64,000 nt of DNA, from assembly GCA_012401045.1 (NCBI GenBank), contig GCA_012401045.1_4704.1. One strand, given 5' to 3'. Below, piece by piece: positions 5,152 to 37,359 of this stretch (the stretch's first letter is position 1; each line of letters begins with the position of its first letter). A model generated the notes under the pieces. It did not search any database and was not told the origin of the DNA. It saw only the letters and a list, made by a program, of their open reading frames with translations. This stretch comes from a phage. The position numbers were made by a program, and so were the translations under genes.

Positions 5152-6108
5152 TTAATGCAAGACACGATCTGCTGGAATTATCGTGGCATTGCTGTCGGAC
5201 AGATTCGTCGCTTTACGATCAGGACTGAATCGACGAGCGTTCTCTTCATGGTAGTTGACGGGGTTATCCTGTTTTAACAGTTCCATTGCCTCATCAAACG
5301 TTAGTTCCCGAAATCCTCTTGGGTAGAGGAACAAGGGTTCATCAACATCCAGCCCTTTAACAAACCCGTGCGACAACCAGACGCTACCATCAGCACTGTA
5401 AAGAACCGGCTCAACATCATAATCCAAGACGTATTGATACCAATAATTAAACAGTTGAGCAATCCACCGATTACGTAATAAGTAATCGATCATAACCGCA
5501 CTACGCACGCTGTGACACCAGCCGATCTTACCATCAACTTTCTGCAACAACGTACCCTCATTTGCTTGATGGATAACCGCATTAAATAACCACGCAAGAT
5601 CGGTTGCGAAAAGTGCTGCTTCTTGAATATCGCTAACGTAACGCACGGGTATCGTCAGATGCGTGCGGTAATGCGACATCGCCTCTTCGTAGTTGTCTCC
5701 TTCGATGCAGAGAGTCCCGTTTGGTGACAGATGTCCCTGATTCAACGACTGACCGATATAAAGATCAGCGATCGCGTTAATATGTTCGACGGTACCCAAG
5801 GTTAACTCAGACATAAAACAATCGACATCAACAGCCATCGATGTACTGGAAACAAACGGATTGGCTGGGCGAGTTGTATTAGAGAAAATAATCGACCAAA
5901 TCGCTTCGTGTTTTTCATCCGATGGCAAAAACGAAATATGGCGTTCTGCGCTATTATCGACAACAAATACCTTTACGGTTTTCAAACAGCTAGTACAAAC
6001 ATAGCACGTGTTCGGCAACGGCATATCCGAAAACATATCGTAACGAATCGATGCCAGCGAAATGTCATGTCCGCAATGAGGGCATGTCGTATCAATAAGC
6101 GTTTTCAT
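5152..6108 (-). CDS. hypothetical Zn-ribbon protein (318 aa)
   Basis: N-terminal CPHCGHD...CYVCTSC. Confidence 0.5.
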   Translation of the reverse strand: MKTLIDTTCPHCGHDISLASIRYDMFSDMPLPNTCYVCTSCLKTVKVFVVDNSAERHISFLPSDEKHEAIWSIIFSNTTRPANPFVSSTSMAVDVDCFMSELTLGTVEHINAIADLYIGQSLNQGHLSPNGTLCIEGDNYEEAMSHYRTHLTIPVRYVSDIQEAALFATDLAWLFNAVIHQANEGTLLQKVDGKIGWCHSVRSAVMIDYLLRNRWIAQLFNYWYQYVLDYDVEPVLYSADGSVWLSHGFVKGLDVDEPLFLYPRGFRELTFDEAMELLKQDNPVNYHEENARRFSPDRKATNLSDSNATIIPADRVLH

Positions 6109-6374
6109 TATTGAATTCCTTTTGATAAGAATAACTGAATATCGGTAAACTGTTCTTCAGGAACATCGTCAGCAGCCGTTAGAACCTTAGGGCCGTGTTC
6201 ATTGAGGTAAGCTTCCCGTAGACGATGATGACGTCGATTGGCTTCCTGGAACTCGGTGTCCGTCATGTAAACCAGCGTAAACTTCGAACGTTTATTCGGA
6301 TTATATCTCTTATTACGTTTCTTTGGTTTCTTCGCCATAATAGCCTCGTGAAGGTGGATGGGTGTACCATCCAC
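6108..6374 (-). CDS. small basic protein
   Basis: MAKKPKKRNKRYNPNKRSK lysine/arginine-rich N-terminus; true start may be the internal Met. Confidence 0.4.
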   Translation of the reverse strand: MDGTPIHLHEAIMAKKPKKRNKRYNPNKRSKFTLVYMTDTEFQEANRRHHRLREAYLNEHGPKVLTAADDVPEEQFTDIQLFLSKGIQ

Positions 6375-6385
6375 CTTCCTCTATG

Positions 6386-6907
6386 TTAAAGTGCGTTCAA
6401 TTCTTCAGGTGTACGTACAGTACGCGTGTTAGGATCAACCATTGCTGGCACACCCGCTGGACATTTACGGACATCGATCCGCATTTCCGGCTCGATCGGA
6501 CGAACACGATACGTTTTACCGTCGTCGGTTAACACCGAAATGGTCAACGCTTGATTCAACTCACTAACGAAGTTCACCAAACGCTGTTGTCCGCCCTTCG
6601 ACCAGAAGTTAAGATCGGTTTCTCCATTGAAATAACTGATTCCATCAGCGGTTCCAATCGTGATTTTAACGATACCCGGATAGTCACGAAGAAGAGGTGC
6701 CTGATAACCTTCATCTTCCGTATCCAGTTTTACCCACGCGCCTCCCGTAGACAAGCAGTTAACTTCCAGGGCGGTTGGTGCACTGACTTCTGCTGATGAC
6801 CAGGTATACATCGTGCCTAGTTTAGCGTGTCCGGTTTCCAGTTCGCTATAATCCCAAGCATGTGCTGATGCCGTAATAAAGAAAGCCGCAAGAAATAACT
6901 TTTTCAT
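6386..6907 (-). CDS. secreted protein with Sec-type signal peptide
   Basis: MKKLFLAAFFITASAHA then W: n-region, hydrophobic core, AxA cleavage site. Confidence 0.55.
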   Translation of the reverse strand: MKKLFLAAFFITASAHAWDYSELETGHAKLGTMYTWSSAEVSAPTALEVNCLSTGGAWVKLDTEDEGYQAPLLRDYPGIVKITIGTADGISYFNGETDLNFWSKGGQQRLVNFVSELNQALTISVLTDDGKTYRVRPIEPEMRIDVRKCPAGVPAMVDPNTRTVRTPEELNAL

Positions 6908-6961
6908 TCTTTCGATTCCTATTAAAAGTGACCGATTTCTGTGGTCGAGATTGCTAATAAA

Positions 6962-7423
6962 TTAATTCCGGTTTTGTTTCCGTATTGCACGGTTACGTTT
7001 ACGTTCTTGGTCTTTGACTGCACCAAGAAACTTCTTTAATTCTGATGGTTCGAGTGTACCCTCACGTACCACACCGTTTTGTTCGATATGGTACGACCAA
7101 TAACCAACTTCAGCCGTTAAGGATAACGTTGTCGGTTGCTCATCAGGTAACGATCGGGGTGAAAAAATAAAGAGTAATTCAAAAGGCGTTTCTCGGCTGA
7201 TGGTGGGACGGATACTCACATCGAGTCCCTCCCATCGCTGAGGTTTAAATATTCCTCCGGCGGCGATGATTGTCTCCGAGCGCTGGTCTACAAGCTCAGC
7301 TAATTCACGATCATCATTGAAATAAATATCGTGAAGGATATCCGTATCGATAAAAAACCCGCGATCCGAATCGTGACGAACAATGGAATTCTTCATTCTA
7401 ACGCCTTTATTGTTTGTTTTCAT
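6962..7423 (-). CDS. hypothetical protein with basic C-terminal tail
   Basis: ORF track; C-terminus KDQERKRNRAIRKQNRN. Confidence 0.45.
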   Translation of the reverse strand: MKTNNKGVRMKNSIVRHDSDRGFFIDTDILHDIYFNDDRELAELVDQRSETIIAAGGIFKPQRWEGLDVSIRPTISRETPFELLFIFSPRSLPDEQPTTLSLTAEVGYWSYHIEQNGVVREGTLEPSELKKFLGAVKDQERKRNRAIRKQNRN

Positions 7424-7470
7424 GTCCTATACGAACATGAAAAACCGTTAATTTTTACCGTAGTCGCGTG

Positions 7471-7746
7471 TTAAAAATCCACCCCGCGACCCGTCATCGA
7501 CGAAGGAACCGCGCGATAATAGAAGTAGATGTAATGGTCGCGATGGCTAAAACAGTTTTTGCAAGCATAGAACTCTCCAGATCCAATGAATGATTTAATA
7601 CGTGTAACTTGAGGGTGTCGTGCGAGTAACGCCCGTAGGACGATTTCCATTTGGTGTGCGCTCAAACCGGGTCGAGCTGCGACATGATAATGAAGCTCCG
7701 TAAGAAATCGTTTCCAGGGATCAGTTTGTGTCGATGATCGAGACAT
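7471..7746 (-). CDS. hypothetical protein (91 aa)
   Basis: ORF track; AAGGAG upstream of ATG at 7746. Confidence 0.45.
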   Translation of the reverse strand: MSRSSTQTDPWKRFLTELHYHVAARPGLSAHQMEIVLRALLARHPQVTRIKSFIGSGEFYACKNCFSHRDHYIYFYYRAVPSSMTGRGVDF

Positions 7747-7784
7747 CTTTATCTCCTTAACAGGTGCTGGTAACGCAGCATAAA

Positions 7785-9702: not shown

Positions 9703-9731
9703 CTCCTCCCCAGGAAAGGTGTGGGGAGGAG
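9703..9731 (+). terminator. CTCCTCCCC/GGGGAGGAG hairpin followed by TTTTTA
   Basis: 9-bp perfect inverted repeat in a divergent intergenic region; overlaps the GTG start proposed by the ORF track. Confidence 0.35.
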
Positions 9732-9766
9732 TTTTTATCATACATTCTATTAAATCGAGCGCGATT

Positions 9767-11848
9767 ATGTTGGATAGAATCAATCGTCTAATGAACCGAA
9801 TAACGGTTAAAAATCAGAGTAACAATACCGTGCATATCGGGGGTATCGATGCCTGGCGTCTTTCAGATGACATTCAGCGAATATGGGGTACCTCCCGATT
9901 TACGAAACATATGTTTCGTAATTTCTCTTCTAGTGGACTCAGCCTCCACAACTTTTACCTCCCCGATTTCGTTTATATTCTCGAGACGATCATCGAAGCA
10001 AAGAATACCCGCAGTAACAAACGCATGCTGAAACACCTTATTGAGGTACTGCTACAGGAAACCTGGTTGCAAAATACCACAATCGAGCAACCTGCAATCC
10101 TCGATAAAGCACGCATGAACAAAATGCTAACGCTCTCTTTGTTCGATTATCAAGATGAGTTTATCGACATCTATAACCGTAACGTACCTAAATATCGACT
10201 GAAAGGATACGTGTGCGCGATGGGTGCCGGTGCGGGTAAAACGATCACCGCGTTGGCATTAAGCGCCGCAATGAACGTCGATGTATTTGTGGTCTGCTGT
10301 CCTAAGAACACGATGCGTTCAGCATGGCAATCCGATGTAAACAAAGCCATCGTTGACCCTGCAACAGAAACCGCGTTCTGGTCAGATACGATGCCACCAT
10401 CACAGCTGCAGAAAAGCGATAAGTACTATTTTCTGCATTACGAATCGATGGGTTTATTAAACGATGTAATGATCAAGCATAAACGCACCGCGAAGCGCGT
10501 GTTGATCGTGGTTGACGAAAGCCATAACTTCAACGACAAGAACAGCCAACGTTCCCAACGACTGGTTGATCTCGTACAGACGATGCGTCAGACCATGAAT
10601 GCGGATGTGCATGTCTTGTTTATGTCAGGTACGCCCGTTAAACAGATGGGTTCTGAGATGATCCCATGTTTAGGTTGTATCGACCCGATGTTCCAAGGAC
10701 AGGTGGTTGATAGCTTCAAAGCAATTTACGGTTTAACCAGCAGTCGCGCTAACGATATCCTCAGACATCGTCTTGGGTTCATGATGCATGTCGTACCTAA
10801 AGAAGCTTATCGTAAAACCCGGCCGGAAGTTCAGGATGTTTACGTGAAGCTCCCTAACGGTAGCGATTATACCATCTCAAGTATCCGCGACGACATGGCG
10901 ATATTTGTACGCGATCGGGCGAAGTATTACAAGGATAACTGGGGGCATTACAGAAAGATTTTTGATGACGCCTTGGACTACTATCGTAAGACTATTCGTA
11001 CCGACGGAGAACGTAAAGAGCTATCTCGATACGAATCGATTGTTGCTCGTTTCCAGAAAGGTTACGATCCCGTCAGAGACAAAGAAGATGCGATGTTCTG
11101 CAACACGTTTGAAAAACGTTCCATCATGCCGGTTCTTCCTTCTGATTTAAGAGTTGCTTTCAAAGACGCTAAGAGTGTCATCAAGTACGTTGGGTTGAAA
11201 ATTCAGGGTGAAGCGTTGGCACGTGTTCTAGGTGCAGCCCGCATTCAGTGTCATGTCGACATGGTGGAGTACATCGACTTCGAAGGGTACATCAACAACG
11301 CTGAAGCCAAAGTGTTGATCTTCACGTCGTACGTTCAGGTGGTTGAGCGCGTCGACAACCTGCTTCGCGATGCGGGTTTCTTACCTGAACCCATTTACGG
11401 GAAGACCAACAAAAACATCAACCAGATACTTGCTCGCTTACGGGACGATCCTGACAGCGGTCCCGCTATCGCAACATTTGATAGTTTAGCTGAAGGGGTT
11501 CCAATGTTGATGTGTAACGTGGGTCTCTTCTTGAACAATCCGTGGCGCTCATCCGATGAAATCCAGGCCATCAGCCGTCTCGACCGTGTAGGGCAAACAC
11601 AACCCGTTCGGATTTATCGTTTCATGTTAGATACAGGAAGCGAGGGTAACGTTTCTACACGCAGCCACGAAATCATGGAGTTAAGCCGACAGCTTGTTGA
11701 AGAAATCACGGGTGTCAAATACGTGGTGAACAAGCAAGACGATGTTAACTTGCAAGAAACGCTGGCGATGGAAGGATACGATCAATACGTTACCGTAAAC
11801 ACCACGGAATACGATATTAAACCACGACCTGCGTTCTTGGAATGGTGA
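9767..11848 (+). CDS. SNF2-family (SF2) helicase/ATPase
   Basis: DYQ, GAGAGKT Walker A, VVDESH, SGTP, and QAISRLDRVGQ motif VI; start moved from GTG 9719 to in-frame ATG 9767. Confidence 0.6.
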   Translation: MLDRINRLMNRITVKNQSNNTVHIGGIDAWRLSDDIQRIWGTSRFTKHMFRNFSSSGLSLHNFYLPDFVYILETIIEAKNTRSNKRMLKHLIEVLLQETWLQNTTIEQPAILDKARMNKMLTLSLFDYQDEFIDIYNRNVPKYRLKGYVCAMGAGAGKTITALALSAAMNVDVFVVCCPKNTMRSAWQSDVNKAIVDPATETAFWSDTMPPSQLQKSDKYYFLHYESMGLLNDVMIKHKRTAKRVLIVVDESHNFNDKNSQRSQRLVDLVQTMRQTMNADVHVLFMSGTPVKQMGSEMIPCLGCIDPMFQGQVVDSFKAIYGLTSSRANDILRHRLGFMMHVVPKEAYRKTRPEVQDVYVKLPNGSDYTISSIRDDMAIFVRDRAKYYKDNWGHYRKIFDDALDYYRKTIRTDGERKELSRYESIVARFQKGYDPVRDKEDAMFCNTFEKRSIMPVLPSDLRVAFKDAKSVIKYVGLKIQGEALARVLGAARIQCHVDMVEYIDFEGYINNAEAKVLIFTSYVQVVERVDNLLRDAGFLPEPIYGKTNKNINQILARLRDDPDSGPAIATFDSLAEGVPMLMCNVGLFLNNPWRSSDEIQAISRLDRVGQTQPVRIYRFMLDTGSEGNVSTRSHEIMELSRQLVEEITGVKYVVNKQDDVNLQETLAMEGYDQYVTVNTTEYDIKPRPAFLEW

Positions 11849-11947
11849 TTAAGAAGCTCTGCCTGACATCAGGCAGAGCTTTATGCTGTATTTGTTGCAA
11901 GATCGTATGACGTATATGCGTTGTACTTATTTAATAAGGCAGAATAA

Positions 11948-13402
11948 ATGAAACTTAAACAAAGCTGGAAAGACGAACTTCTCGCGTTAGTAAACAGCAA
12001 AAACAGTTTACAACTGACATTAGACGATGTAAAATTTGAACTAACGGCACCGGTAAGCGAAGTGCCTGGAACGGTCGTTGTTACAATCAAACCGAACGAT
12101 AATAGTCGCTACTTTAACGAGCAGTCTCTGACCTACATCCGTCGAGACATCGCTAAAAACTTCACTGGGATCCCGTTACGGGTCATCGTTAAAAAAGATA
12201 CCGCTGTAAGGGATATCATCAATACGATTGCTGAACGTTACGGATTGGTATTTGACACAGCCGTCGACTTCCTCGAATCCGAGCTGAATAAACAAATTAC
12301 GTTCGCAGACACCGGTATTAAAGACATTACGGTTCCGGTTGCAAACACGTCTTATGTTTGGGCGGGTAATCTTCAGTTCAATATTGCTAACGATACGTTA
12401 AGCTTGATTACTATCATCAAGAAAACCGATCTTACGAATCTGGTTTATCTGGATGGTGTTGAAGCTGACACATCTGGTTCGTTACTATTAGCAACCGCAG
12501 CACTTGTTAACGAACACGTAAATGAACCGATGGTTGAAAACGAAGATATCGTTAATGAATTTATTAACGTTCTTAATACTCTAGCCAAATATGGTGACAT
12601 AACCGGCGATGAATTAGATGCCGCCTTACAAGCGTACGATGAAGCAGAAAACAGGAATAAAACCACGGTAATAACTCTTGGTGATATCCAGTGTGTTGCA
12701 ACAGAAAAAGACGATTGGGAAATTGGACGTTTACGCGGTCAGATGGTTCTCGCGCTCAAATCCGATAAATACCCGGAGCCCGATAACACGTTCAGGTTGT
12801 TTACGAATGGTGGTGACGTATCGCTAACGTTAAACACAATGAAAGATATAAGTATCGATTGGGGTGATGGGAATAAAGTAACGTTGGATGCTGAAGAAAG
12901 ATACGCGCACCACACATACGCCGACAATAACCAGTACCAAATCGAAATTGTGTCTCGTACGGACCCAGATGTGCTGCGACCAAATTATATTTCTGGGAGT
13001 GAGATAACCGAAGTAATTCACTGGGCTACTACTTCAACAATAGCTCTGAATTTTGTTGGATGCGATAATTTAGCGACTGTTCCAGATGAGATCCCAACTT
13101 CGTGGACAACGTTGGACAGCATGTTTGAAAGTTGTACGAATTTGAATGATCCGTCTATCTCTAACTGGAATACAAGTAACATCACATCAATGAATGGTAT
13201 GTTCGGCGGATGCACTAAATTTAACCAACCTTTAGCTGCCTGGGATGTCAGCTCAGTAACTGACATTGGTGGTATGTTTAACGGATGCAACAGTTTTAAC
13301 CAAGATTTAAGTGGGTGGCGATTACCGTCAGGAGTAACCCACGACAATTACGATAGTGGTGCTTTCTCGTGGCAGACGGAACATAAACCGACGTTCCAGT
13401 AA
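11948..13402 (+). CDS. protein with C-terminal BspA-type repeats
   Basis: Repeats of the form MFxxCxxFNQxLxxWxVSxVTxMxxMF in the last ~100 residues. Confidence 0.5.
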   Translation: MKLKQSWKDELLALVNSKNSLQLTLDDVKFELTAPVSEVPGTVVVTIKPNDNSRYFNEQSLTYIRRDIAKNFTGIPLRVIVKKDTAVRDIINTIAERYGLVFDTAVDFLESELNKQITFADTGIKDITVPVANTSYVWAGNLQFNIANDTLSLITIIKKTDLTNLVYLDGVEADTSGSLLLATAALVNEHVNEPMVENEDIVNEFINVLNTLAKYGDITGDELDAALQAYDEAENRNKTTVITLGDIQCVATEKDDWEIGRLRGQMVLALKSDKYPEPDNTFRLFTNGGDVSLTLNTMKDISIDWGDGNKVTLDAEERYAHHTYADNNQYQIEIVSRTDPDVLRPNYISGSEITEVIHWATTSTIALNFVGCDNLATVPDEIPTSWTTLDSMFESCTNLNDPSISNWNTSNITSMNGMFGGCTKFNQPLAAWDVSSVTDIGGMFNGCNSFNQDLSGWRLPSGVTHDNYDSGAFSWQTEHKPTFQ

Positions 13403-13422
13403 AAAAAAAATAGTTAGCCTAT

Positions 13423-13455
13423 CTTCCTCCCTACCCATAACGGGCGGGGAGGAAG
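13423..13455 (+). terminator. intrinsic terminator-like hairpin followed by TTTTATGG
   Basis: CTTCCTCCC/GGGAGGAAG 9-bp stem 20 nt after the stop of 11948..13402, in a convergent gap. Confidence 0.45.
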
Positions 13456-13473
13456 GTTTTATGGCGTTATGAC

Positions 13474-13812
13474 TTAGAACCAGAGTTCTTTCATGAAGTA
13501 GGCTTCCGTATCGTAGATAAGCCACTCATCAGGGATTTCTAAAGGATCGTCTTCGGTTAAGGTGAGCATGTGCAGGGCGAACGCACGCTTAATATCTTCC
13601 AACAGCTTATCATCACCGTAACCTTCGGGTAGTTTACGGTCAGCCAGCTGAGTTTGTTTATAGACATCGCGGAACGCTTCAGGATTATGTTTATCCATCG
13701 GGAATTGTTCAGCAGCCTGAACCATCGAAAGCGTCCAGCTTACAACATTGTAACGCTCACCGTTAATTTCACTGAACTGATCATCGATTAAACAGATTTG
13801 TTGTATATTCAT
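13474..13812 (-). CDS. hypothetical protein (112 aa)
   Basis: ORF track. Confidence 0.45.
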   Translation of the reverse strand: MNIQQICLIDDQFSEINGERYNVVSWTLSMVQAAEQFPMDKHNPEAFRDVYKQTQLADRKLPEGYGDDKLLEDIKRAFALHMLTLTEDDPLEIPDEWLIYDTEAYFMKELWF

Positions 13813-14770: not shown

Positions 14771-17032
14771 TTACAATTCAAAATCTTCATCGATAACACG
14801 CTGGGTAAGCACTTTGTCGCTGAAGAACTCCACCTTGCGCTGATGGTATTTACGGTGCGCTTCGATAGAAGTACATACCAGATACCAGAACGTTGGCGTC
14901 ATTCCTTCAAACTTTCCTTTCAGCTGACGCAGTCGCCCCAACACCTGAATGTTACCGGTTCGTGACCCCATCGCTAATGTCATGAACGTCATCACCAAGT
15001 CAGGAAGGTCGATACCTGTACCTGCCGATTTCACCGTTGTAACGCTAATATCGTTATCCAGCAAGACCATGAAATCTTCTTCAGCGGTATAAGGACCGAT
15101 CTCTAACTCAGGGATACGTTCACTGAGATAATGCGACAACGACTTACACATATCGACGGTTGCACAATACACCAGCATCTTCATACCTTCCTGATACTGG
15201 TTCATGAAACCCTTGATAATAACGGTATAGATGAAGTTAAAATACGCGAGTTTGAGTTGCTTGTTCTTCATGATAGACTGTTCGAATATCGTGTGTGAAT
15301 AAGCTCCACCAAACCCTTTGTATCTGACTTTATCTGTACTGCGTAGTCGGTACGTTACCGCATTTACCGCAATGTATTTCTTGTATTCGCCTTTCGCATA
15401 ACGAGCTTCTTTCGGATACATCAAATACAGCATCTGTTCGATAAACGGATCATCGGATACCGCTGTTGCCGACAGATAAATGATTTCCGGAATATTGGCG
15501 TAACACTTGACCTTAAACAAGAAATGCAATGCTTCGTGACACTCGTCATGAATCAGCAAACCTATGCCGGTCTTTTCCCAAAACTCAGCGGGATGAAAGG
15601 CATATGGCGCAACGCAGTTATTCTTCTCGTAGTCCGCAATATAACGTTGGAACATGTTCAAGGAGAACAATGCGATTTTAAAGTCGAGTTCACCTTGTTC
15701 AACCAAGGTTTGAAACTCCAACATACTGTAACGAGGAATGTCGGGATGCGGTGGATCCTCCTTAGCGTTCCCGCGTATCTCGATAACGTCCCCTGGTTCC
15801 ATCCCGAAGAAGTTCAGCAGTGAGCTTCGCCAACCTGGCATATACCGTGGAGAAAGTATAATGCCTGTGCGCACACCCCGTCTGAACACGATTTCCTGCG
15901 ACATCGCGGTGTTATGCGTGACGATGTGGTCTTTAATAACATAAAGGCTTTCGTCATTGTCCACCGTGATGCAACGTGCTTTCGCTTTCACTGTCGGTAC
16001 GATGCTATCAATCGCTAAACCAGGAAGCCGGTTAACGGGGAGATCGTCTGGAACCTCAATGTCGTCAGGAATAAGCTTACGCAAATCGGAATGATAAATT
16101 AATGTCTCCATCGTGTAACTATCGATGGGGCATTTATACGCGATTCCTCCTAACTGATAAGCCAACTCCCAAACCTTGGCCGTTATCTGCGAATCGACGG
16201 TTCTGACCGCAAGGTGAGCTTGCCCGTTTCTGATTCTCAGTTCACAGCGACCTTTGATTACCGCCTTAAATTCCTCGATACCGACGAGTTCTTTCGGTTC
16301 GTAAAGTCGGATTCTTATTGGACGAGATCGAGCAGGTCTGTCGTAAAGACATTCCATGATTTCGTCCGTGCTGAGAACCTTATCGGGGTCAGTACACCGC
16401 CAGAGATGATCGCCACACGCTTCAACCATCCTACCGTCTTCAAAGAAGATAGCATGAAGCTGAATATCGTCATGATCAAATATAGCGGTTACGTTCGTCG
16501 GTAACCCATCCGCACCAACAACCTGATCCCCTACCTGAAGCTCACCAATCGGCTTCCAACCTCCTGGAACCTTCACGGGTGTGGTAAGCCGTACCGCTTT
16601 CCCTGACCCCGTTTGAGCGGTGTTTAGGCTCATTCTGAAGGGGGTATCCTTACCCCCGTCCATGTACTCCAACCATTCTTGCTGATCTTCACGCCATGGA
16701 AACTTCCATTTCTTTACGAACTCCACTTCTTTACCTGGTACCGGATCGTGATAGACGATTTCCAACCACTCTTTTCGTATCCCTCGGGAAAAGATAAAAT
16801 CCAAAAACGATTTCAACTGTTCACGGAGTAAGTATACCTCGCTATAATCGCTTCTTGCCGCGGCATACGTGTTTATGGTATCGGTAACCATTCTCCGTGT
16901 ACGAGGGTCACGCCGTTTCCTCAGATGCAAACAACGGTCTCGAAGGTAATGGCCGATAAGATGGGCAAATCGAAGTCCGTATCCGCTCAGCCTCATGCCA
17001 TGCGAGAAGACGTCGATACGAGCTAACTTCAT
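14771..17032 (-). CDS. SF2 DExH-box helicase whose P-loop is interrupted by an intein
   Basis: AQTGSGK then intein then T (restores Walker A); LIHDECHE Walker B; QVLGRLRQ motif VI; start ATG overlaps the TGA of the upstream gene. Confidence 0.6.
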   Translation of the reverse strand: MKLARIDVFSHGMRLSGYGLRFAHLIGHYLRDRCLHLRKRRDPRTRRMVTDTINTYAAARSDYSEVYLLREQLKSFLDFIFSRGIRKEWLEIVYHDPVPGKEVEFVKKWKFPWREDQQEWLEYMDGGKDTPFRMSLNTAQTGSGKAVRLTTPVKVPGGWKPIGELQVGDQVVGADGLPTNVTAIFDHDDIQLHAIFFEDGRMVEACGDHLWRCTDPDKVLSTDEIMECLYDRPARSRPIRIRLYEPKELVGIEEFKAVIKGRCELRIRNGQAHLAVRTVDSQITAKVWELAYQLGGIAYKCPIDSYTMETLIYHSDLRKLIPDDIEVPDDLPVNRLPGLAIDSIVPTVKAKARCITVDNDESLYVIKDHIVTHNTAMSQEIVFRRGVRTGIILSPRYMPGWRSSLLNFFGMEPGDVIEIRGNAKEDPPHPDIPRYSMLEFQTLVEQGELDFKIALFSLNMFQRYIADYEKNNCVAPYAFHPAEFWEKTGIGLLIHDECHEALHFLFKVKCYANIPEIIYLSATAVSDDPFIEQMLYLMYPKEARYAKGEYKKYIAVNAVTYRLRSTDKVRYKGFGGAYSHTIFEQSIMKNKQLKLAYFNFIYTVIIKGFMNQYQEGMKMLVYCATVDMCKSLSHYLSERIPELEIGPYTAEEDFMVLLDNDISVTTVKSAGTGIDLPDLVMTFMTLAMGSRTGNIQVLGRLRQLKGKFEGMTPTFWYLVCTSIEAHRKYHQRKVEFFSDKVLTQRVIDEDFEL
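15911..16597 (-). mobile_element. intein, 229 aa, class-3-like (Ala1, Trp/Cys/Thr triplet)
   Basis: Hint blocks GWKPIGELQVGDQVVGADG, CITVDNDESLYVIKDHIVTHN then Thr; inserted between Lys and Thr of GSGKT. Confidence 0.6.
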
Positions 17033-35370: not shown

Positions 35371-35713
35371 CATGAGTCGCTACCTCATACCCGCAGCTTT
35401 ACCTGCAGCTTCCGGTGTTACCGGAATGTCCAGAATATATCTTATCCATATTCCAAATGGAACGTAGGACTTCCGCGCTGGATCTCGCTTGAGACCACGT
35501 ATTCGTTGAACGTTCTCCTGAACGGAGCTTCGCTGCTGATCGAACATTGTCACGTACGGTAGGCATCCCCGAAGGGATTGTCATTGAAGCCGCGTACATC
35601 CGCTACCTTGTTTCTACCTTATCGGTTCCTCTTACGAGGCGTAGCAGCCTTAGCCCTTCCCAGCAATTCACGGAATCCAAGCTCTTCCTTTCGGAAGGCA
35701 GGGCCTATGATTA
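35371..35713 (-). ncRNA. second group I-like intron or degenerate intron spacer
   Basis: Minus-strand Q-like ATCAGCAGCGAAGC (35527-35540), R-like GTTCAACGAATACG (35498-35511), S-like AAGATATATTC (35433-35443); GNRA and UUCG-capped hairpins; no P1 guide found. Confidence 0.4.
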
Positions 35714-35726
35714 AGCGTCACCGTCG
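35714..35726 (-). CDS. 13-nt micro-exon CGACGGTGACGCT supplying the DGD of the catalytic motif
   Basis: Joined to exon 1 it reads NADF-DGD-A; its first four bases are complementary to the GUCG that sits directly 5' of the intron-1 guide sequence. Confidence 0.45.
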
Positions 35727-36103
35727 CTGTTTATCGACTATATCTTCATCCTCGTTGCGAGGAGTCTCCCGTTTTGGTCTGTGTTTAACAGAGCCTACTC
35801 TACTCGACATCGCGTCTTTCGATAGTCTGTGAGCACACATCTTAACAAACATTCGTGGATTCCTAAACAGGTGAATGTTCTTGTTGAGATGCTTCGCTGC
35901 GGATTATTCCCGTCCTACCTCTTTTACCGTACCCAGTTCATTACGCTGGCCCTCATCTATGTCACCACGATGAGTTGGTGTGTAGTCCGATTACAGAAAC
36001 TTCCCGTCAATTAGAGAGCTTTAACTACGTTCCTGTTACCAGAAACCCGACTCCGACGGCATCAATAAATCAACATAAGTTATTGATTTAATTGAAAAAA
36101 CTG
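35727..36103 (-). ncRNA. group I self-splicing intron, 377 nt, no internal ORF
   Basis: Minus-strand P AATTGACGGGAAG (36000-36012), Q AATCCGCAGC (35896-35905), R CACAGACTA (35823-35831), S AAGATATAGTC (35736-35746); guide GAGUCGG (36047-36053) pairs exon end CCGACUU with terminal U-G; ends in G at 35727. Confidence 0.7.
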
Positions 36104-37359
36104 AAGTCGGCATTATAACCTTTGAGGATCATCACGCTTAACCCGATGGTGTTATCCTGCGGATCGCGTTTAACCTTGGTGATTTCAAGACATTGGTTAC
36201 TGCTTCGGTCAAGTGATGGGTTTCGAACAAAGCCGCACACAATCCCATCGAACGGTGTATCAGCAATAAGCTCATCGTGCAGCTCGCTCATCATCGGATG
36301 ATAATTACGGACATGTTCCGCAACGAACGCACGCGCTGCTCTCGGTGAATAACCACGATGGAATAACTTGGATTGGATATGTTCTTTATTGGTTAAAGTA
36401 AATGGTGCGTATGGGAAATGCAGATGATAATAACGATGGTTCGCTGTTATCGAACTGATTACGGTACGCGTGGTGAATGGATGTAATGTACCTAATATGT
36501 TTTTACGTGTAATACCTTTCTTCTTACCGATGAACTCATCGAAAATCGCCGCGTGGTATTGCAGTAGCTTCAATTGCACTTTCGCCATCCAGTTTTCTTT
36601 CTTTCTGGCGCTCAAAGGTGTTGTTGGATGATAGATACTGTTCAACGTACCGATAGCATCGATCGCACCTTCCATTTTGCTATCCGCATAACGACCGGTT
36701 GGCGTATTCTCGATAACGAACATCATGGCCGCAGGAAAGCTGATATACTGACTGAAGAACTTATCACGATGGATACGGATGAATTCTCGTAGCGTGTCAA
36801 CTTTCTCCGTGTTCTTCGGTCCACGTAACGTCGGTCCTTTATACAAGATCTCCATGATGCGATCGAAGTTCTGTATAAAACTATTTACACCGCGACGTAT
36901 CCCGAATACATCGAATTGCTGCTCCAGATAGTTCTTGAGTTCGATGGGTCGTTTTACATTTGGACGGTAACTGGCATCAATGAGCCACGTCATCGTTTCA
37001 AAGCTTTTGATATTCAACTCGCTTGCCAGCACGAGATGGACCAACGGGTTAATGAACGCATCGATTCCTTCAGGAACACGCGCCCAAACCGTCGAACGAA
37101 TCTCCTGTTCTGCCGGGTAGGTCACAACCGTTTTACAGTTTGGACACACCGTGCCGAGTAGCTCACCACGATTGTAGAAACCACAACCACACTGTGGTGT
37201 GATATCCAGCGTATCGCTGGAGTAAACACGGGTGATAAAACTGTTTAATTTCTTCTTCTCTTCGACGACTTTTGTATCGTAATCATTCAACAAAATCGGC
37301 GTAAAAGGAAGTTCTGCGAGCTGTCTATCGAAACTCACGATATCGAGCATGATGGCCAT
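36104..37359 (-). CDS. RNA polymerase beta-prime N-terminal subunit, exon 1
   Basis: N-terminal Zn ribbon QCGCG...CPNC; ends GYNADF matching E. coli AYNADFDGD; unspliced frame gives NADFSFFN then stop at 36088. Confidence 0.7.

Follow-up and report, generated by a model that had tools for sequence, protein, structure and literature searches.

We examined a 64,000-nucleotide stretch of phage DNA (GenBank assembly GCA_012401045.1, contig GCA_012401045.1_4704.1), hereafter the window, and within it the plus-strand gene at 11948..13402, which encodes a protein with an N-terminal DUF7941 module and a C-terminal leucine-rich repeat (LRR) domain of the PARCEL/DUF285 type. The window belonged to a Goslar-like chimallivirus, i.e., a nucleus-forming jumbo phage, with ~96% nucleotide (nt) identity to Goslar. 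Positions 2950–64000 (61 kb) aligned to the Goslar genome (NC_048170) at 91–98% nt identity, including the counterparts of the Goslar nuclear shell protein and PhuZ genes. The gene was the positional ortholog of Goslar gp161 (HOV27_gp161) and lay between the orthologs of gp160, an SNF2-type helicase, and gp162. Its flanks were 96% and 91% nt identical to those in Goslar with conserved gene order, and the same synteny was found in seven further loci of public assemblies. An IMG/VR scan returned two loci only, one of them Goslar itself, and the gene context of the homolog in Serratia phage PCH45 consisted of hypothetical proteins throughout and was uninformative. This type of protein is already annotated and was described in 2026; what the window adds is a divergent allele and evidence that most of the distal part of the gene, codons 184–474, was recently exchanged laterally. 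The gene and its parts are as follows.

11948..13402, plus strand: complete gene, ATG start, 484 amino acids (aa), ortholog of Goslar gp161 (YP_009820846.1), encoding a DUF7941 and PARCEL/LRR protein (open reading frame (ORF) list, PF25613 and PF03382)
11948..12427, plus strand: globular N-terminal domain of DUF7941 (aa 1–160), the presumed anchor to a filament or the baseplate
12428..12496, plus strand: flexible linker of DUF7941 (aa 161–183), where the conserved part of the gene ends (AlphaFold2 (AF2) model, nt identity, protein identity)
12497..12802, plus strand: middle domain (aa 184–285), two helices and a small beta unit (AF2 secondary structure, pLDDT 58–87)
12803..13399, plus strand: predicted LRR solenoid domain (aa 286–484), consisting of a beta-rich N-terminal cap with the motif IDWGDGN, degenerate turns, three canonical PARCEL repeats, and a C-terminal cap
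13106..13330, plus strand: the canonical PARCEL/DUF285 repeats (aa 387–461), the feature singled out by a first-pass annotation of the window (PF03382, TIGR02167, sequence motif, DNA repeat)
12497..13369, plus strand: exchangeable cassette (aa 184–474) (blastn, segment comparison, synonymous divergence (dS))

Nucleotide identity to Goslar ended at 12495 and restarted at 13370. Goslar gp161 has the same DUF7941 and DUF285 architecture and nearly the same length (483 vs 484 aa), and its DUF7941 module (aa 1–183) was 97% identical in protein sequence to that of the window, but identity fell to ~40% over residues 184–484, which did not align at the DNA level. The cassette accordingly gave no blastn match to Goslar. 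Only two stretches of the 61 kb failed to align: the 874-nt cassette replacement and a 683-nt insertion, very probably an intein, in a helicase gene. The cassette was the sole stretch replaced by diverged sequence.

The same contrast between the two parts of the protein extended across the group. Among 57 sequences (55 ortholog clusters, the window, and Goslar), pairwise identity of the N-terminal module had a median of 96% and a minimum of 86%, vs 73% and 36%, respectively, for the rest of the protein. At an 80% threshold the latter comprised at least 12 types, which fell into two deep classes. The window belonged to the rarer class (5/57) and the Goslar type to the other (52/57). The middle domain was the most divergent part of the protein, with ~30% aa identity to Goslar-type alleles.

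Segment-by-segment comparison of nine loci revealed a mosaic history. The window, Goslar, and loci L009, L011, and L014 had a common backbone, with 93–97% identity in the left flank, the N-terminal module, and the right flank. The window cassette was 97% nt identical to that of L005 and 91% to that of L010, although the backbones of these two loci were just 91–94% identical to that of the window. Four cassette types occurred on five near-identical backbones, and the grouping by cassette conflicted with the grouping by backbone. For the window and L005, dS was 0.25 in the N-terminal module vs 0.066 in the cassette, and the ratio of nonsynonymous to synonymous divergence (dN/dS) was 0.07 vs 0.32. 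The N-terminal module of the window was also nearer to that of a Goslar-type ortholog, P0011 (98.9%), than to that of the cassette donor type, P0001 (96.2%). Because the cassette is nearly identical to that of a phage with a more distant backbone, with dS, the conflicting groupings, and the P0011/P0001 comparison all in agreement, we conclude that codons 184–474 were recently exchanged laterally. The joints of the exchange lie in two conserved regions, the N-terminal coding part and the terminator downstream of the gene.

A search with the cassette only found close relatives exclusively in four Goslar-like ortholog clusters, and the next matches were generic DUF285 proteins with 30–40% identity from many bacterial and archaeal lineages. 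We therefore rejected a recent capture of the cassette from bacteria and conclude that it circulates within the Goslar-like group.

The N-terminal module, which the first-pass annotation had missed, matched the Pfam family DUF7941 (PF25613) over aa 4–189 with an E value of 3.5e-25 (89.5 bits vs a gathering score of 27), and phrog_1037, annotated as “virion structural protein”, also matched the N-terminal region. In the AF2 model, aa 1–160 were folded and the linker had pLDDT values <50 at aa 163–175. The middle domain (aa 184–285) matched no Pfam family. DUF7941 is a chimallivirus-specific module, and PF25613 also matched the Goslar paralogs gp22, 23, 31, 33, 34, and 91. An hhalign comparison of the N-terminal module with the filament-forming Goslar gp22 gave 99.5% probability and 35% identity over aa 16–180. 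Goslar gp22 and gp23 thus belong to the same Pfam family, with an N-terminal domain and linker homologous to those of our protein, but they are short (296 and 180 aa), lack a binding domain, and are more abundant by a factor of 5 to 20. The C-terminal domain of gp22 did not align with the middle domain of our protein in hhalign.

The fold of the N-terminal domain resembled phiKZ gp127 (PDB 9XQD chain 0), a component of the outer baseplate, although gp127 has only 19–22% identity to our protein, no match to it at the sequence level, and no LRR domain. Sequence searches of the PDB with the protein and with a 60-sequence profile found nothing relevant. In phiKZ, gp127 caps the gp139 band of the outer baseplate, a placement that was obtained by docking a predicted DUF7941 N-terminal model into a ~4.4 Å map (PMC13250141). 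It is probably the DUF7941 module that puts the protein on the particle.

Two side observations concern the architecture of relatives. A related locus (L004, GCA_961210045.1, positions 6001–7755) encodes a 584-aa DUF7941-PARCEL paralog beside a tail-fibre gene, and the same tail-fibre locus in Goslar (L003, 5602–9198) carries the 1198-aa gp92 instead; the exchange of DUF7941 proteins that differ in their distal domains thus involves a second locus too. In some relatives, the encoded proteins P0074 and P0083 (276 aa) and P0118 (271 aa) corresponded to just one end of the protein, either the N-terminal part as far as ~aa 276 or the C-terminal part starting at ~aa 153, and could come from split or truncated genes or be artefacts of gene calling.

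The first-pass annotation had placed an ORF at 11948–13402, which was present exactly as called, and had described it as a BspA-type repeat protein with MFxxCxxFN-type repeats at its C-terminus. The repeats were borne out: the motif MFxxCxx[FL]N begins at residues 392, 418, and 443, with a period of 26 and 25 residues, and the coding DNA contained a direct repeat at 13195/13270 (75-nt spacing, 73% identity). The profile search that the annotation had suggested as a check found the family, with an E value of 1.2e-25 for Pfam DUF285 (PF03382; 90.1 bits vs a cutoff of 25) and of 1e-13 for NCBIfam TIGR02167 (50.7 bits vs a cutoff of 30, in three stretches), which is far above chance. The repeats had conserved hydrophobic and variable polar positions and agreed with published examples of the PARCEL logo. 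Structure prediction, also suggested there, yielded an LRR solenoid for the repeat domain, the fold that is also characteristic of BspA-type LRR proteins.

The BspA label itself was only partly upheld. The predicted solenoid agrees with it, and “BspA family LRR” is NCBI’s former label for the TIGR02167/DUF285-type family, but the true BspA family, Pfam LRR_5 (PF13306), scored below its cutoff (12.6 bits vs 27.7, E 0.13), and our protein was 14% identical to the BspA-like LRR protein BACOVA_04585 of Bacteroides ovatus (PDB 4FS7). The current NCBIfam name of TIGR02167 is “PARCEL repeat-containing surface protein”, after the palindromic amphipathic repeat coding elements (PARCELs) described by Roske et al. 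in 2010 (PMC2996958), and the family label should read PARCEL/DUF285 on a DUF7941 anchor. The dyad symmetry of PARCEL elements was not detected in the repeat-coding DNA, with a best local score of 8.5 vs 9.6 ± 1.8 in trinucleotide shuffles, 225/300 of which reached it, though three repeats give such a comparison little power; only weak inverted repeats were present. Our protein has the same 25–26-residue repeat as PARCEL/DUF285 surface proteins such as Mycoplasma LppQ, with profile scores over the cutoffs. It differs from them in having just three canonical repeats, fused to a phage anchoring module, and an N-terminus without a visible signal peptide or lipobox. PARCEL domains in a jumbo phage were already noted in 2020, in pir03 (PMC7765460).

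Two hairpins border the gene.

11856..11882, plus strand: terminator-like hairpin at the end of the upstream SNF2-type helicase gene (read directly from the sequence; Goslar has a terminator annotation at the same spot)
13401..13461, either strand: A10 run, strong hairpin (13421–13457), and TTTT tract between convergent genes (folding, conservation)

The upstream hairpin reads GCTCTGCCTG-ACAT-CAGGCAGAGC followed by TTT. Three related loci had compensatory changes in its arms (T to C paired with A to G) that kept the pairing. The terminator-like hairpin that the first-pass annotation had seen at the end of the gene was confirmed at 13421–13457, with a folding energy of −29.3 kcal/mol and a z-score of −4.3, and 0/200 shuffles folded equally well. 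It is flanked by A10 on the upstream side and TTTTAT on the downstream side and was kept, even in the most divergent locus, in 8/8 loci aligned there out of nine related loci in the comparison. A simple terminator scan did not detect this hairpin. The region 13401..13461 is probably a terminator that would serve both convergent genes. With hairpins on both sides, the gene is therefore an isolated transcription unit. It is also, as the first-pass annotation had remarked, one of few on its strand: about four other non-overlapping plus-strand ORFs of at least 110 aa occurred in the 64 kb, not counting the upstream helicase.

Other candidate signals at the gene were discarded. A sigma-70 scan upstream of it found nothing meaningful, and the conserved ATCGTATGAC before the start codon was rejected as a recurring promoter motif, with 79 matches in the window vs 79 expected. 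An antisense ORF across the repeats (13018–13347, 109 aa) was also rejected, as its length was at chance level (codon-permuted mean 111 codons) and its position was unconserved among orthologs. No paralogs of the gene were found in the window by tblastn, and the remaining Goslar DUF7941 genes map outside the stretch that matches the window.

Upstream of the gene, the SNF2-type helicase (9719–11848, plus strand) is listed with a GTG start that is probably 16 codons too early, because the alignment to Goslar gp160 starts at residue 17 (ATG at ~9767). Downstream, the convergent neighbour at 13474–13812 on the minus strand encodes a 112-aa protein orthologous to Goslar gp162. It was 94.6% identical to the Goslar protein, and we therefore rejected the idea that gp162 co-varies with the cassette. 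In Goslar, gp162 was estimated at ~127 copies in the virion preparation discussed below, near the 111 of gp161 (Table S4, 10.64898/2026.04.21.720040).

The window also contained traces of mobile elements. The minus-strand ORF at 14771..17032, an SF2 DNA helicase orthologous to Goslar gp164, carries a 229-aa insertion (aa 146–374; window 15915–16597) that interrupts the Walker A motif GSGK|T. Its sequence is Hint-like, with Ala in first position and a terminal THN that precedes Thr. Judged by these sequence features, it is very probably a mini-intein, and the positions of its W, C, and T residues look like those of a class 3 intein. No Pfam family matched the insertion over threshold. Goslar gp164 is without it, five relatives share the 753-aa form, and in L014 the helicase measures 876 aa, with a faint match to LAGLIDADG. 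Beside the insertion, identity to Goslar drops to 88, 76, and 80%, a pattern that homing would leave. A full-length group I intron match (RF00028) at 35727–36094 on the minus strand scored 49.3 bits vs a gathering score of 50 (E 2.6e-11) and lies directly downstream of an RNA polymerase beta-subunit ORF (36088..37359); a second, weak group I match adjoins it (35411–35724, 22.9 bits). Goslar has the same intron with an adjacent HNH endonuclease gene (gp186), and the window lacks precisely that 1065-nt stretch, with the junction at 35728/35731.

Published data on the Goslar ortholog bear on where the protein may act. An April 2026 bioRxiv preprint reported the structure and proteome of the Goslar virion and defined ten DUF7941 proteins, among them gp161 as DUF7941 plus LRR (10.64898/2026.04.21.720040). 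Purified gp22 formed filaments, head-to-tail DUF7941 oligomers were predicted, AlphaFold3 (AF3) dimers were reported, and the authors proposed a “DUF7941 fibre cloud” for host recognition, anchored at the peripheral baseplate, in which gp86, gp92, and gp161 bear carbohydrate-binding, glycoside-hydrolase, or LRR domains (10.64898/2026.04.21.720040). Virion mass spectrometry, a further check named by the first-pass annotation, has thus been published for the ortholog and was positive: gp161 was found in CsCl-purified virions with 27 peptides, 53.8% coverage, and ~111 copies per virion (range 74–174; Table S4, 10.64898/2026.04.21.720040).

The structure of the gene and its history agree with the pattern seen in phage receptor-binding proteins, namely a conserved attachment part and a hypervariable, laterally exchanged distal part. 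The exchangeable C-termini of T-even gp37/38 and of the S-type fibres of P1, P2, and Mu are established knowledge, and these systems follow the same pattern, in which the N-terminal part serves attachment and is conserved and the C-terminal part confers specificity and is exchanged laterally. The gene differs from them in that its product is predicted to be an LRR solenoid and not a trimeric fibre, that attachment would be through DUF7941, and that it lies outside the tail cluster.

We consider it probable that the product of the gene is displayed on the virion and binds a ligand through a specificity domain that can be exchanged; the outward display, the binding, and the part played in host range are what we infer. 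The DUF7941 module (globular domain and flexible linker, aa 1–183) would fix the protein to head-to-tail DUF7941 filaments or to the outer baseplate, and aa 184–484, i.e., the small variable domain followed by the PARCEL/DUF285 LRR solenoid, would face outward. The ligand of the displayed LRR part would most probably lie on the bacterial surface, and its binding would aid adsorption or host recognition. Specificity would change when the C-terminal cassette is replaced as a unit, by homologous recombination in the conserved coding sequence for the N-terminus and in the conserved terminator region. The first-pass annotation had suggested a virion-surface or host-recognition protein from the repeats; the occurrence of gp161 in virions, the gp127-like N-terminus, and the exchangeable cassette favour that idea, though the function still stands as a proposal. 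A wider form of the same idea is possible but more tentative, namely that DUF7941 filaments are a general chimallivirus scaffold for interchangeable modules and that the PARCEL-LRR cassette is a true determinant of adsorption and host range, traded at a fixed joint after the linker.

Several observations weigh against a displayed, host-recognizing protein. The preparation in which gp161 was found also held chimallin (~126 copies), ChmC, and PhuZ, and its authors state that it captured large non-virion assemblies (10.64898/2026.04.21.720040); self-assembling DUF7941 filaments could therefore have co-purified unattached. There was no DUF7941 density in the Goslar baseplate map (10.64898/2026.04.21.720040). 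The gene sits among replication and transcription genes, outside the tail module. The dN/dS of the cassette is <1. LRR domains bind many kinds of ligand, so the fold does not imply a target on the bacterial surface. Finally, cassettes of one type (at least 80% identical) came from assemblies with four host labels (E. coli, Shigella, Salmonella, and Enterobacter). A given cassette type is therefore not simply tied to one host genus, and nine labelled sequences showed no association between cassette type and genus label.

Some of these points would suit a packaged protein that is injected into the cell. LRR domains of bacterial type III effectors bind host proteins, and by analogy the LRR part could bind a host or defence protein inside the cell, with cassette variation reflecting an intracellular arms race. 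The gene lies among early and middle-type replication genes, its cassette type is untied to host genus, and mass spectrometry is blind to whether a protein is inside or outside the particle; many abundant Goslar virion proteins are, moreover, injected (10.64898/2026.04.21.720040). We nevertheless regard an injected effector as unlikely, given an N-terminal module homologous to the filament-forming gp22 and the baseplate-located phiKZ gp127, a paralog that adjoins a tail-fibre gene, and no relation to the PF12699 inner-body family that the preprint ties to injection.

It is likewise improbable that the displayed LRR part is an adhesin for mucus, animal tissue, or other environmental surfaces, retaining particles where hosts occur, as has been proposed for Ig-like capsid decorations, and having no part in host choice. 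Many microbes, both host-associated and environmental, have PARCEL/DUF285 proteins on their surface (PMC2996958), the same cassette type is found with four enterobacterial genera, and Goslar also has the conventional tail fibres gp90 and gp25, all of which would fit such an adhesin. The carbohydrate-binding and glycoside-hydrolase domains that the fibre cloud also bears are, however, typical of bacterial surface recognition, and when closely similar phages turn over a cassette quickly, host receptors are the more usual targets. That the protein is no functional part of the particle at all, occurring as free filaments or acting in the infected cell and reaching the virion proteome by co-purification, agrees with the similar estimated copy numbers of chimallin, ChmC, and PhuZ, the lack of DUF7941 density in the baseplate map, and a gene outside the structural modules, but is quite improbable since the N-terminal DUF7941 domain of gp127 has been fitted into the outer baseplate map of phiKZ, the fitted chain resembles the N-terminal domain of our protein, and phage databases label its relatives as virion structural proteins.

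Beyond the cassette swap, the gene is the expected ortholog of an annotated and recently described protein. For host finding by nucleus-forming jumbo phages, a natural swap of the cassette on an almost isogenic backbone offers independent evolutionary support for the specificity role proposed for the displayed binding protein. If the PARCEL-LRR cassette is indeed a determinant of adsorption and host range, it would be the first LRR-type receptor-binding domain of a phage, the widespread PARCEL/DUF285 repeat would gain its first defined molecular function, and the large DUF285/PARCEL family would gain a tractable model protein.
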